Below are positions 51,506-56,553 of a stretch of DNA of 64,000 bases, in pieces. A program made the position numbers and the translations under genes. Positions within the stretch are counted from its first letter, which is position 1. The number at the start of each line of letters is the position of its first letter. The notes under the pieces are model-generated. The model did not search any database. It was not told the origin of the DNA and saw only the letters and a list, made by a program, of their open reading frames with translations. The stretch is from Escherichia phage GoldenSnicker: sequence record OR896832.1. One strand, 5' to 3'.

Positions 51506-51688
51506 TCAGTAACCCCGCTTAGTGAAGTGATCTATCATGGAATTAATACAATCGGCCTCGCTGATTCCAGATATACCCCATCCGTAGTTACCCCACCTGA
51601 AATGCATGTATACACATTCGCCATGATACGATACTTTCACTTCGTCAAATTCTGGGATACTTCGCATAATCATAATAATATTCCTCAA
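51506..51688 (-). CDS. hypothetical small protein
   Basis: 60-aa ORF. Confidence 0.35.
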   Translation of the reverse strand: MRNIIMIMRSIPEFDEVKVSYHGECVYMHFRWGNYGWGISGISEADCINSMIDHFTKRGY

Positions 51689-53076
51689 ATATAGTCTACA
51701 CGATACCGTGCACGGGTAACACCCACATATAATAACTGCATTGCCAATTCAAAGTCAACATTATCTGTACACATGCAAGGGGTATACAGGAACACGCGGT
51801 CTACGCTGATTCCTTGTGACTTATGAATAGTGCAAGCTGGTAATGCTTTTACATTCAAGAACATACGCTTCATCGTCCAGAAAGAATCCCAATCCGGTTT
51901 AAATTTTGGATTCTCTTTCTTCATTTCGCGATATTGTCCGGCGACCGTATTCAGATAGATAGAGAAAATGTTCTTCTGACGTTGTTCTGTCAGAATGTTG
52001 ATTTCTACTAAATCTGGTTTATCTGTAGTGATTCCGACTGCATCTAACCCTACTTTCTGATTTAGGATTTCTTTGTCTTCGTCATCATCGACGCTTTCCA
52101 CTTTCAGAGTATATCCTAAAACTGGTTGCGGATCTACCCCCGTGCAACGTAATGTAAATTCACGCGGGATGACCTCTTTAACTCGGATCATCTCACCATT
52201 GTTAAAAATAACATTGGGAATCTTCTTCCCGCGTTCATCTCGCAGATATTCGATCAATGGTTCCTGAGTAACCAGAATTTCATCTACAATCACTGGTTCA
52301 TCGGTGTTATAAACGCGCTTACGTACAATTTCATTGAGTTTTTCGACGCTCTTGTTAGTGTAAGCCAGAATACGGTTTTCTAGAAGGTCTTCCGGCGTTT
52401 TAACGGTTTCGAAATAATGCTTCATAAACTCCGGCAGAGTTGAGCTATGGAATACACCCTCGTTACCGCACTGCTTTTCGAATACCCATTTACCATTACG
52501 GACAGCGGTTGCAACGTCAATTATTGGTGCATTGGACCGTTTAATCTCTGTGAGTTCTACATTCTGGAAATTTTCATCCGTGAAGAAAGGAGAGATCGAC
52601 GTTGCACCGCTCGGATCAACTGGTCGTAACTGGTGAGGATCGCCAACTGCAATAACAACAATTCGACCGTTGATACTCTTCATGAGAATATCAAATAGTT
52701 TCTTATCGACCATACTCGCTTCATCAACAATGATGATCTGAACATCATCTAGCTTAGGAGTATCTTTTTGCTCAAATACTTGAGTATCTTCATAGTTGGT
52801 CGGGTTAAGACGCAATAAAGCATGTAAAGTAAATGCTTGACGACCTACCGCTTTACTCAAAACTTTTTTAGCCTGGTGGGTAGGCGTTGCCAAAACCACA
52901 CCAGTTACACCACGGCGGACCATTTCCTGAACAATGAATTTCATCATTGCGGTTTTACCAGTACCCGCCGCACCACGGACAGTTGTATGCTTCTTTTGTT
53001 CAATGCGTTTCATTAGAACATCAAAAGCATGTTTTTGCCCGTCTGTTAACATATCGAAAGTTAATACTCTGCTCAT
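51685..53076 (-). CDS. dda: SF1 DNA helicase Dda
   Basis: Walker A GAAGTGKT, FDxLTDGQKHAF N-terminus, C-terminal YVGVTRAR; colinear with T4 Dda. Confidence 0.85.
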   Translation of the reverse strand: MSRVLTFDMLTDGQKHAFDVLMKRIEQKKHTTVRGAAGTGKTAMMKFIVQEMVRRGVTGVVLATPTHQAKKVLSKAVGRQAFTLHALLRLNPTNYEDTQVFEQKDTPKLDDVQIIIVDEASMVDKKLFDILMKSINGRIVVIAVGDPHQLRPVDPSGATSISPFFTDENFQNVELTEIKRSNAPIIDVATAVRNGKWVFEKQCGNEGVFHSSTLPEFMKHYFETVKTPEDLLENRILAYTNKSVEKLNEIVRKRVYNTDEPVIVDEILVTQEPLIEYLRDERGKKIPNVIFNNGEMIRVKEVIPREFTLRCTGVDPQPVLGYTLKVESVDDDEDKEILNQKVGLDAVGITTDKPDLVEINILTEQRQKNIFSIYLNTVAGQYREMKKENPKFKPDWDSFWTMKRMFLNVKALPACTIHKSQGISVDRVFLYTPCMCTDNVDFELAMQLLYVGVTRARYRVDYI

Positions 53077-53390
53077 TATCCTAAAATCCTCACCTTGCGA
53101 ACACAGATAGTATTGAGTTCTCGCCGTACCCGTTCTTTCTCATATTCAGGAATTTTGTATTCTATACCATCCCGAACAATTTCAGAAGACCGGATTATAC
53201 CAAATTTTCGTTTAGGCACAACCTTGTATTTCGGTTCACCTGCCAATAGACTCTCACAATAATCTATCTGATCACACATTGACGCTAACGCAGCATCATG
53301 TGTTTCGCAAGTTAGGACGCGACCCTTCGCGTCCACTGAGTATTGAAAGAATCCGTCTTTATCACGATAACATACAGCAAATACATGCAT
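53076..53390 (-). CDS. hypothetical protein
   Basis: 104-aa ORF. Confidence 0.4.
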   Translation of the reverse strand: MHVFAVCYRDKDGFFQYSVDAKGRVLTCETHDAALASMCDQIDYCESLLAGEPKYKVVPKRKFGIIRSSEIVRDGIEYKIPEYEKERVRRELNTICVRKVRILG

Positions 53391-54145
53391 TATAAACCTA
53401 CCTTCGCTTTCATCAATTCAATCCACGACGCATCAATCGGAAGCCCGTATTTCACGCGTTCTTTTTGTGCTGGCGTTAAGTTCTCATACTTAGAAAGAGA
53501 TTCAATCAAAACGCTGGTATATTTTAGCACGATTTCGGTATTGTTTGCAATAGCCTTAAGTTTTTCTTCTTTCTTGTTGATTTCGCTAAGGGCTTGCTTG
53601 AGATCTGCAATTTTCTGATAACGTTCTTCCATACGGAAGAGAGTATTTTTAATCGCTCGCTCGGCTGCCTCTGCTTTCTCCGGTTCGTTGTGCTTTTTGT
53701 GGCGCTCGATTGCTAATTTCTTTTCTTCGATTGCCATTTCCTGATTTTTGATGCGATTCTCGTTAAGTTCGATCCACTCGATGTACTTCGCACGTAGGGC
53801 AATTTCATCATCAGAAAGTTTACCGTTAGTTCCTAGTTCCTGGATCTCTTTAAGAGATTCGATAGTGTGATTGCCACGGAAAGAATTGTATTTCAGTTTA
53901 ACCGGAATTACATTGCCATCAACATATCCCAGATTGCAATCAATGCGCTCTAAGGAGAGTCCGTCATCACCTTCACCGAAAGCCTCACCTGAATAGGCAC
54001 AATGAGTCTGGCGGTAAATGTTACGAACAGTGACTAAGCTCATAGAGAAGTCTTTGTTGCGACGTGAAGCACCAGCCATGATAGAGTTCAGCCGGAAAAC
54101 AACCAGCGCCAATTCTTCGTTAGATTTAAAAGCAAACAGTTTCAT
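53390..54145 (-). CDS. hypothetical protein with coiled-coil C-terminal half
   Basis: 251 aa; N-terminal Cys/His-containing region then a long charged helical region; no confident family assignment. Confidence 0.4.
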   Translation of the reverse strand: MKLFAFKSNEELALVVFRLNSIMAGASRRNKDFSMSLVTVRNIYRQTHCAYSGEAFGEGDDGLSLERIDCNLGYVDGNVIPVKLKYNSFRGNHTIESLKEIQELGTNGKLSDDEIALRAKYIEWIELNENRIKNQEMAIEEKKLAIERHKKHNEPEKAEAAERAIKNTLFRMEERYQKIADLKQALSEINKKEEKLKAIANNTEIVLKYTSVLIESLSKYENLTPAQKERVKYGLPIDASWIELMKAKVGL

Positions 54146-54206
54146 AATTGATTCTCCTTAGTTGGCATGTGTGTATTATTGTCTATCTGGTTTGTGCTGT
54201 CAACAC

Positions 54207-54710
54207 TTAAATTAAAGAAAATTTGTAAATCTCTATCAGATCGCCGTTACACGCGTAAACTTCCTCGATCTCATCAAGGATCATGGTCGTCCCTGTCTTG
54301 TATATGCACTCGCGCTCATCTGCCAACATAGCATACAAAGACAGTCGAGTAGTCGGATTGTCATACTCTTTAGACACCACTCGGTCAATAGCATGTTCGT
54401 AATAATTCATGCAAGGCTTGGTAGGTTTTATTGCAATAATCTTTCCTGTTGCATAAACATCGGTTGCAAAGTCCTCTGCTGTTGATTGTAGTGGCGTAAA
54501 GCTCATAGGACGCTCTACAACGAAAGAATCACCCACAATTAAGGTATCCAGCTTACGGCCTTCTCTTTTGCTCACACCGCGATACAAGGCTTCATGATGC
54601 ACTAACCGTTCAGTCTTTTCGATCAATCCATTAAGGATCGACATATCGATATTTTCTTTAGAGTTCATCACTTCATCAATGATGTTAAGTTCTTCTGGTG
54701 TAAATTGCAT
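54207..54710 (-). CDS. ADP-ribosyltransferase, ModA/ModB-like
   Basis: candidate R-S-E triad: YRG, STAED, ERE; start at ATG after GGAGG SD (listed ORF start lies inside the promoter). Confidence 0.5.
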   Translation of the reverse strand: MQFTPEELNIIDEVMNSKENIDMSILNGLIEKTERLVHHEALYRGVSKREGRKLDTLIVGDSFVVERPMSFTPLQSTAEDFATDVYATGKIIAIKPTKPCMNYYEHAIDRVVSKEYDNPTTRLSLYAMLADERECIYKTGTTMILDEIEEVYACNGDLIEIYKFSLI

Positions 54711-54742
54711 AATAAAAAGCCTCCAATCTTTCGACGGGAGGC

Positions 54743-54771
54743 ATAATAAAACCATTATAGAGTAGTGTCAA
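54743..54771 (-). promoter_or_regulatory. sigma70-type early promoter
   Basis: TTGACA (54771..54766), 17 bp, TATTAT (54748..54743). Confidence 0.5.
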
Positions 54772-54778
54772 CTAATTT

Positions 54779-55303
54779 TTAGTAGCCGCGTTCTTGACGG
54801 GCGAAGTTTTCAGCATTTTTCAGATAGTACAGAATAAAGAGTTCTTGAGCGTCAATACCCAGCGGGATCATCTTTGACAGAATGAAGTGGATCGCGTCCA
54901 CAAATTCAAATTTCACTTCAAGCTGATCTTCTGGTGACAGTTCAGAGAATTTACGCGCTCGCGCTTCCCCGTGGTTCTTTTTCCACATTTTCCAGATTGC
55001 ACTTGCATCTTTACCATTGGACATTCCACCCAGCGATGTGTAAAGCTCTCGTGTTTCGTCTGCGATAGCGTCATCCATCCGTTGCATCCAATCCAGCATT
55101 TCACCGCAAGTCTCTAGCTTAGTTGGATTTGGGACCCAATCAAATTTTTCGGATAATGCAACCTGCAAACCAGTTTGCATTTCGAGCATCACCTGAAACG
55201 GATCTTTACCTTCTGCAATAGCGTGATGATATGCGGCGATAGCCGCGTTAATATCTTTTTCGTTAACCAGACCAGCACAAGAATTAAATTCTGACATATT
55301 CAC
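54779..55303 (-). CDS. 56: dCTP pyrophosphatase (dCTPase/dUTPase)
   Basis: 174 aa; position before gene 61 and size as T4 gp56. Confidence 0.7.
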   Translation of the reverse strand: MNMSEFNSCAGLVNEKDINAAIAAYHHAIAEGKDPFQVMLEMQTGLQVALSEKFDWVPNPTKLETCGEMLDWMQRMDDAIADETRELYTSLGGMSNGKDASAIWKMWKKNHGEARARKFSELSPEDQLEVKFEFVDAIHFILSKMIPLGIDAQELFILYYLKNAENFARQERGY

Positions 55304-55311
55304 CTCATTAA

Positions 55312-56340
55312 TTAAAATTTACAATATTTCATAAACCGCATTTTAGCCATCAGACCTTGTACGGTGTTCTCTTTGATGTATTCCATGATCTGGTCGCGTG
55401 TAGCGCCCTCGTCCTGAATCATGGCGTTAACGTCTTTAGAATGCCACGGGCAGCGATCCCACAAAACAATCTTTTCCCCTGCATTGATAAACTTTTCCAG
55501 TCGGTGCATTGTATCGGCAGACCGTGGTTCCGCATCAAGTACAAACACTCGCTGATCAGGGAAAGGAATTTCATCTAATCCCAAAGTACCGCCAGTAATT
55601 GCACACCCGTTATCAATAAACAATGAATCGATCGGACCTTCTAAGAAATACACTGGCCTACTCGGATCGGCGCGTTCAAGACCATAGACCTTACTCGCTA
55701 ACTCATGAGTTTTAATCGTCATATATTTGGTCTTTCCGTAATCCTTTCTCAATGCTCGCCCCTGAATGGATTCTATCTTGTTCTCGCGGTTAAAGATAGG
55801 AATCACTAAACGCGGTTCAGGTTGTGGATTCTTGAAAGTATCAGCCTTAATGTGATTTGCTACCTTTTGCCATTCTCTCGTGAAATACAGAAGATCCCAT
55901 TTATCGTGGGGAATGCAACGATCACTGACATACTTTATTATAGGATGATTAGCCGGAAGAGTATCTAATCTCTCGCAGAAAGGCAATGTTTGCACTTTCT
56001 TAATCTCCGGCTTTTCTACCTTTTTCAGTGGCTTGAACGTGGTGTTCTTGTGGTCGCCTTGTTCCTTCCGTCGTTCCATAAGCCATTCCCTGAATAGGTC
56101 CGGCTTATATTGTTTAAGAAATTCACCTAACGGCTGATTGTAGTTACAGTTGAAACAACCACAACGCAAACTATCCTTATAGGTATAGATACGGAATCGC
56201 GCTTGAGTATGATTTTTCTTTGAGTCACCGCAGATCGGACAACTACAGACCAGCGTAAATGAGCTAGTATGCAACCGTTTAAAATTTCGTTCGCCGTATA
56301 TGGCTTTTTCCGCTATTTCATAATCTGCGTAGTAAATCAT
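55312..56340 (-). CDS. 61: DNA primase
   Basis: 342 aa, same as T4 gp61; zinc-binding CPICGDS...CFNCN and TOPRIM-like region. Confidence 0.85.
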   Translation of the reverse strand: MIYYADYEIAEKAIYGERNFKRLHTSSFTLVCSCPICGDSKKNHTQARFRIYTYKDSLRCGCFNCNYNQPLGEFLKQYKPDLFREWLMERRKEQGDHKNTTFKPLKKVEKPEIKKVQTLPFCERLDTLPANHPIIKYVSDRCIPHDKWDLLYFTREWQKVANHIKADTFKNPQPEPRLVIPIFNRENKIESIQGRALRKDYGKTKYMTIKTHELASKVYGLERADPSRPVYFLEGPIDSLFIDNGCAITGGTLGLDEIPFPDQRVFVLDAEPRSADTMHRLEKFINAGEKIVLWDRCPWHSKDVNAMIQDEGATRDQIMEYIKENTVQGLMAKMRFMKYCKF

Positions 56341-56349
56341 AATAACCTC

Positions 56350-56553
56350 TTATAGCTCAAATTTCATGAAAGTTCCTACACTTTCATTTTCATTCTCTCC
56401 GTTTTCATCTAAGCCAAATTTATAGACACTACCATCTGGCGATGTGTAAGAGAATACACGAAAACGGCCTACCGGGTCAAGTTCTGTAAATTCATATTCT
56501 TTTCCGGCTTCAAAAAGTGCATATGTGCTTTTAAGACATTTCATCGTAATCAT
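56350..56553 (-). CDS. hypothetical small protein
   Basis: 67-aa ORF; start overlaps upstream stop (ATGA). Confidence 0.4.
   Translation of the reverse strand: MITMKCLKSTYALFEAGKEYEFTELDPVGRFRVFSYTSPDGSVYKFGLDENGENENESVGTFMKFEL

Follow-up and report, generated by a model that had tools for sequence, protein, structure and literature searches.

The DNA analyzed here, a 64-kb window comprising the whole stretch of 64,000 nucleotides, comes from a Krischvirus, an RB49-like T4-type coliphage, and is 98% identical to RB49 at the nucleotide level. Around the gene of interest (positions 51600-56400) the identity is 98.2% to RB49 and 98–98.6% to dozens of related phages. The minus strand at 54207..54710 (stop codon included) holds mod, a gene for a 167-aa protein and the counterpart of the RB49 gene RB49p014 'modB'. 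A first-pass annotation, made from the sequence alone, had delimited an open reading frame at exactly these coordinates, leaving out the strand. The start codon is the ATG at 54710, which is preceded by a GGAGG 9 nt 5' of the ATG and agrees both with the RB49 annotation and with all of the close homologues, which begin M-Q/E-F-T. A mechanical call gave a longer ORF from an ATG at 54755. That start was rejected because it has no Shine-Dalgarno sequence, because transcription is predicted to begin downstream of it, and because the homologues and the RB49 gene begin at 54710. The protein is 99–100% identical across 56 deposited phage genomes, and mod is a conserved, intact gene.

A Mod-type ADP-ribosyltransferase (ART) gene is already a known and ordinary component of T4-type genomes. 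In the RB49 annotation, RB49p014 carries the gene name modB and the product name "RNA polymerase ADP-ribosylase"; the database 'modB' annotation of the RB49 gene dates from 2003, and modB or ADP-ribosylase is also the annotation in dozens of Krischvirus genomes. The names are far from uniform, however: records of the identical 167-aa protein call it modB, modA, 'ModA or ModB', 'ADP ribosylate ribosomal protein', 'RNA polymerase ADP-ribosylase' or hypothetical protein. The literature searched contained no experimental data on the Mod of the window or on any Krischvirus Mod.

The gene order in the window is 61-56-mod-srd-dda.1-dda. In T4, the corresponding order is 61-dam-56-segF-soc-mrh.2-mrh.1-mrh-srh-modA.4-modA.3-modA.2-modB-modA-srd-dda.1-dda. 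Directly upstream of mod is gene 56, the dCTPase gene (54779..55297, minus strand), identified by PHROG 173 (E=5e-37), by tblastn with T4 gp56 (E=3e-51, 49% identity) and by the RB49 annotation. (The mechanical ORF of gene 56 begins at a GTG at 55303 and would give 174 aa; the RB49 annotation and the alignment to T4 gp56 favor the ATG at 55297, giving 172 aa.) Directly downstream, as in T4, is srd (53390..54145, minus strand), identified by PHROG 1400 'Srd anti-sigma factor' (E=6e-74), by tblastn with T4 Srd (E=3e-25) and by the RB49 annotation. Mod is thereby placed where Mod-family genes are found, in a T4-type early region beside srd-dda.1-dda, with srd separating it from dda.1 in the window as in T4. 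The first-pass annotation had held that the position relative to dda and gene 56 differs from that in T4, where srd and soc intervene. The difference is real in so far as a second mod and the whole block from modA.2 to segF, soc included, are missing; srd, on the other hand, is present and in the same place as in T4. By tblastn, T4 modA.2, modA.3, modA.4, srh, mrh, mrh.1, mrh.2, soc, segF and dam have no match in the 64 kb.

The proposal that there is only one mod-like gene was borne out in the window, where neither tblastn with the T4 Mods nor a family HMM run over 416 ORFs found a second paralogue. Similarly, tblastn with the Mod protein found a single place per Krischvirus genome among the records listed. 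Elsewhere in its genome, RB49 does have alt, in diverged form, and a paralogue of alt (Nolan et al. 2006, PMC1524935).

Two further observations concern the genes downstream of mod. Besides the Srd family, PHROGs of HNH endonuclease and endonuclease VII match Srd over residues ~20-100 (E=1e-12 to 1e-4), which hints at an HNH-like origin of the N-terminal part of this protein. The stop and start codons of srd and dda.1 overlap by one base at 53390, as do those of dda.1 and dda at 53076, which suggests that srd-dda.1-dda may be translationally coupled.

Between gene 56 and mod lies a predicted early promoter of the sigma-70 type, (G)TTGACA-17-TATTAT with an A-run upstream (54743..54771, minus strand), which matches the consensus at 11/12 positions and is found 33 nt 5' of the start codon. 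Early promoters of RB49 have a G at -33 and an A-rich, UP-like -40 region (PMC1524935), and the mod promoter fits this description. It is also kept in L005 (IMGVR_UViG_3300005711_000037), a locus from a Krischvirus relative and the only informative one added by a scan of IMG/VR.

Directly 3' of the promoter, sequence and folding predict an RNA hairpin, GCCUCC-C-GUC-GAAA-GAU-U-GGAGGC followed by UUUUU (54719..54742, minus strand). It consists of the GCCUCC/GGAGGC stem, three inner pairs, a GAAA loop and a U5 tract, and it appears in both the MFE and the centroid structures (z=-2.2 for the region). In L005 the hairpin is preserved, with one G.U pair changed to G-C. The Shine-Dalgarno sequence of mod (54724-54720) is the 3' arm of the hairpin. 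The structure could terminate transcription after gene 56, mask the Shine-Dalgarno sequence when transcripts run through, or do both. In RNA that reads through from genes 61 and 56, the hairpin would then cause termination or cover the Shine-Dalgarno sequence. The predicted transcription start, on the other hand, is ~7 nt after the -10 element and past the 5' arm; mRNA from the proximal promoter would therefore have a free Shine-Dalgarno sequence. This arrangement of promoter, hairpin and Shine-Dalgarno sequence resembles that of T4 gene e (PMC3014915), and the comparison suggests that the region may be a combined terminator and Shine-Dalgarno-masking element, as it is there.

A second strong sigma-70-like promoter, GTTGACA-17-AATAAT (54175..54203, minus strand; 11/12 matches), overlaps the 3' end of mod. 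Since this promoter sits just upstream of srd, it seems that mod and srd each have their own early promoter.

The assignment of the protein to the Mod family is firm. PHROG 832 "RNA polymerase ADP-ribosylase" matches residues 2-153 with E=1e-20, and an HMM built from 31 family members gave E=1.3e-53 for mod, with the next best of the 416 window ORFs at 0.15. When 1.84 billion representatives were searched exhaustively with a profile, 222 relatives came up at E<=1e-3, with representatives of ModB and ModA scoring highest; in the same search the representative of Mod's own cluster (P0001, 99% identical to it) was matched at E=1e-64. All close homologues carry the precomputed Pfam label PF26816. 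Scans of the protein against Pfam-A and NCBIfam gave nothing significant, the copy of Pfam-A evidently being one without PF26816, and a match to DUF5507 (E=0.13) was dismissed as noise. Distant matches to the family profile carry the Pfam domains ADPrib_exo_Tox (PF03496) and ART (PF01129).

Some of the proteins matched by the profile are of a quite different kind. Giant proteins of 1,500-7,000 aa (P0036, P0038, P0043, P0049 and others) have several separate matching stretches each, and P0114, which carries a Phage_Mu_F domain, is also matched. Presumably, these are ART fusions that are packaged in virions or resemble polymorphic toxins.

An AlphaFold2 model of Mod, made from a 13-sequence alignment, has a pLDDT of 90.5 and a pTM of 0.83. 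Foldseek found 104 matches to this model in the PDB at E<=1e-3, and the best 50 of the 104 are all ARTC toxins or effectors. They include Certhrax, BECa, CDTa, VIP2, C3, iota Ia, ExoT and HopU1, with a probability of 1.0 and TM scores of 0.5-0.62; for the first six of these, E is about 1e-6. Among the predicted structures in BFVD, ModB of phage CBH8 was matched with a TM score of 0.91 and ModA of phage Sf22 with 0.85. By sequence, a PDB search with the single Mod sequence gave no match, and the family profile gave only a marginal one (E=0.02), to XopAI, an ART-like effector, in its EXE region. Since there is no sequence relative with a solved structure, the fold assignment rests on prediction. 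As modeled, Mod has the ART fold and belongs to the ARTC (cholera-toxin-like, R-S-E) superfamily.

Among the closest known systems are C3bot, VIP2, iota Ia, CDTa and Certhrax (ADPrib_exo_Tox), which share with Mod the predicted fold and an arrangement of R, S-x-S/T and E-x-E on strands 1, 2 and 5. However, Mod is only 10-16% identical to the C3-like and binary toxins and has no direct Pfam match; in the model, the segment preceding the EXE motif is a helix (119-132); and Mod would be cytoplasmic, whereas the toxins are secreted. T4 Alt (682 aa) is a relative at the level of the ART-domain superfamily (by PHROG), and RB49 likewise has its diverged alt genes. Alt is a large protein that is packaged, injected and encoded elsewhere in the genome, whereas Mod is a single domain of 167 aa that would be made after infection, and so does not have the form of a multidomain virion protein of ~680 aa.

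The residues expected at the active site are all in place. R44, G45, S70, E132 and E134 occur without exception in the aligned family members (31/31). R44-G45 aligns with R73-G74 of T4 ModB and R72-G73 of ModA, S70 with ModB S99 and ModA S96, and E132/E134 with ModB E171/E173 and ModA E163/E165, so that the alignment called for by the first-pass annotation puts all of them in register with both T4 proteins. The R44 codon (54579..54581, minus strand), in the motif LYRG, would encode the NAD-binding arginine on beta-strand 1. The S70 codon (54501..54503, minus strand), in PMSFT, would provide the serine of the R-S-E triad within an S-x-S/T motif, at the canonical S-T-S motif position of this enzyme class. 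The E132-R133-E134 codons (54309..54317, minus strand) form the EXE motif, with E134, aligned to ModB E173, as the predicted catalytic glutamate. DSSP places R44 of the model within strand 42-45 and E134 immediately ahead of strand 135-137; S70 is part of strand 69-72, after which comes helix 75-85. This is the layout of the superfamily, in which strand 1 carries the arginine, strand 2 carries Ser-x-Ser/Thr and leads into a helix, and the glutamate stands at the start of strand 5. ModB R73 and E173 are reported to be essential for NAD binding and catalysis (PMC10468400; bioRxiv 10.1101/2025.07.11.664405). A glutamate two residues before the catalytic one, the EXE motif, marks arginine-specific ARTs (PMC3102197), and by this motif, present as E132-R-E134, Mod would be arginine-specific.

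The triad had previously been sought in YRG, STAED and ERE. YRG (Y43-R44-G45) and ERE hold up, but the serine of STAED, S76, was rejected because it is conserved in 8/31 members only; the invariant serine, in 31/31, is S70. The positions corresponding to S109/S111, which we take to be the published triad serine of ModA/ModB, are not conserved in the alignment.

The identification of the ORF as a gene for a Mod-family ADP-ribosyltransferase is thus supported by the profile, the predicted fold, a bridge of sequence relatives and the active-site residues. The original proposal of a Mod-like ADP-ribosyltransferase is in this respect well founded, since the family profile, the predicted ARTC fold, the retention of the residues reported to be essential in ModB and the slot next to srd all agree with it.

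What would such an enzyme do? Very probably, this member of the T4 Mod family is a mono-ADP-ribosyltransferase of one domain that is expressed early, is specific for arginine and uses an R-S-EXE site. Host RNA polymerase would transcribe the gene after infection from its own sigma-70 early promoter. The protein would bind NAD+ through R44 and S70, and E134 would catalyze the transfer of ADP-ribose, with E132 assisting and directing the reaction to arginine. The acceptors would be arginine side chains of host proteins of gene expression, that is, of transcription or translation, and the modification would be part of the takeover of the host. We infer enzyme activity, arginine specificity, early timing and host targets alike from the comparisons described here.

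A protein with the ART fold might also serve another purpose: its substrate could be a protein of host defense, or no protein at all, its main activity could be that of an NAD+ glycohydrolase, or it could have lost catalysis altogether. AcrIF11 (PMC12421852) is an example of a phage ART with a different target, and the lineage of this Mod is a distinct one. However, its catalytic residues are intact and invariant, including the EXE motif of arginine-directed protein ARTs, and its genomic slot is shared with modA and modB of T4. Any of these other roles is therefore considered very unlikely, and an arginine-directed Mod enzyme remains the preferred reading.

Is it a ModA or a ModB? Mod is 27% identical to T4 ModB and 25% identical to T4 ModA. 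In a neighbor-joining (NJ) tree (BLOSUM62, 100 bootstraps), it falls with five metagenomic proteins in a clade of its own, the "short Mod" clade, whose members are 161-176 aa long, with a bootstrap value of 100. The ModA clade is separate, also at 100, ModB is found elsewhere, and all deeper nodes have values <=41. An assignment to ModA or ModB by phylogeny was accordingly abandoned, the deep nodes being what they are and the short Mod clade standing apart from both. The ~30 residues with which ModA and ModB begin are absent from the short clade, the alignment of Mod beginning at ModB residue 31, and the members of the clade have the motifs PCMNYYEHA and MLADERECIY in common. Among deposited phages, only Krischvirus carries a member of this clade. 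For three of the other members (P0018, P0022 and P0029), the best matches in the phage collection are to Krischvirus at only 40-47% identity, so these proteins probably come from unsampled phages.

Profile comparisons add to this picture. With hhalign, the short clade matched the ModB clade with a score of 107 (E=5e-17) and the ModA clade with a score of 72 (E=5e-11), the lowest of the three comparisons; ModA and ModB clades matched each other with a score of 97. Likewise, T4 ModB finds mod in the window by tblastn (E=4e-8), whereas a tblastn search with T4 ModA gave no match there. It looks as if ModB has diverged less than ModA, and it is ModB that the short clade resembles more.

Mod could, then, be a strict functional orthologue of T4 ModB, ADP-ribosylating S1, EF-Tu and trigger factor and perhaps RNAylating S1 and L2 with NAD-capped RNAs, activities described for the T4 enzyme (PMC10468400; PMC3014915). 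The modB annotation in RB49 fits with this, as do the tblastn result, in which ModB was the only T4 Mod to be found, and the higher profile score to the ModB clade. Mod and ModB (207 aa) have in common the PHROG 832/PF26816 family, the R-G, S-F-T and E-x-E residues and the slot between gene 56 and srd-dda.1-dda. On the other hand, the identity of 27% is hardly above that to ModA, and the tree has Mod in its own fully supported clade; it shows no group that joins Mod to ModB and leaves out ModA and the other Mod lineages. ModB is one of a tandem pair in T4, whereas Mod is the sole Mod of its phage, and at 167 aa it does not have the full-length architecture of about 207 aa: the first ~30 residues are absent, as are about 12 before the EXE segment. 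The various names given to the same protein in the records also speak against reading the annotation literally. Strict orthology is possible but on balance improbable.

[quoted passage not shown] Were Mod to take the part of ModA, Arg265 of both alpha subunits would be ADP-ribosylated by it, and host and early promoters that depend on UP elements would be shut down. The PHROG name points in this direction, and the early promoters of RB49 do carry A-rich UP-like elements. ModA (200 aa) is of the same family, with the same predicted fold and the catalytic residues R72, S96 and E163/E165. It also has in common with Mod a KEY[DN] motif in the 103-117 region and a pattern of indels, in that both lack a 4-residue insertion; the tree groups Mod weakly with the ModA clade, at a bootstrap value of 41 only. 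However, this grouping may be an artefact, since the ModA clade is a long, divergent branch. The low profile score and the failure of ModA to find mod by tblastn count against this role, and the alt genes of RB49 could cover the modification of alpha. ModA differs further from Mod in having S-A-S instead of S-F-T and an N-terminal extension, at 25% identity. A ModA role is thus unlikely.

Based on these comparisons, Mod appears to be neither a ModA nor a ModB in the strict sense, and is best placed in a distinct short Mod lineage; the 'modB' label on the Krischvirus gene is one of convenience, not a call of orthology. Since the profile score of the short clade to ModB exceeds that to ModA, there is a weak lean toward ModB-like behavior, in which several targets in the translation apparatus would be modified, as a matter of resemblance and not of orthology. 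Isoelectric point and net charge were considered as a guide to RNA binding, but all Mods are acidic, so these values are uninformative. The choice of target could be affected by the lack of the ~30 N-terminal residues and by the shortening of the segment that leads to the EXE motif. That short Mods represent a third functional type, with a target set unlike that of ModA or ModB, is nevertheless quite unlikely. If they did, one minimal enzyme might modify both the alpha subunit of RNA polymerase and the translation apparatus, or it might modify a host protein that is new as a target of ADP-ribosylation.

Given that the gene family is familiar, the worth of the analysis lies mainly in its corrections: S70 is the serine of the triad, srd is not missing, and 'modB' does not denote orthology. 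Of modest interest are the targets that so small a Mod, present as a single copy, would have in a T4-type phage. Being ~20% shorter than ModB, Mod would be convenient for a first experimental structure of a Mod or, if it accepts NAD-capped RNA, for RNAylation-based conjugation tools.

A last observation comes from the Krischvirus relative L005 (1-3823). Its identity to the window is 97% for Dda, 100% for Dda.1, 96% for Srd and 94% for gp61, as against 75% for Mod and 71% for gp56. The mod-56 pair thus looks like a module that is locally exchanged or fast-evolving.
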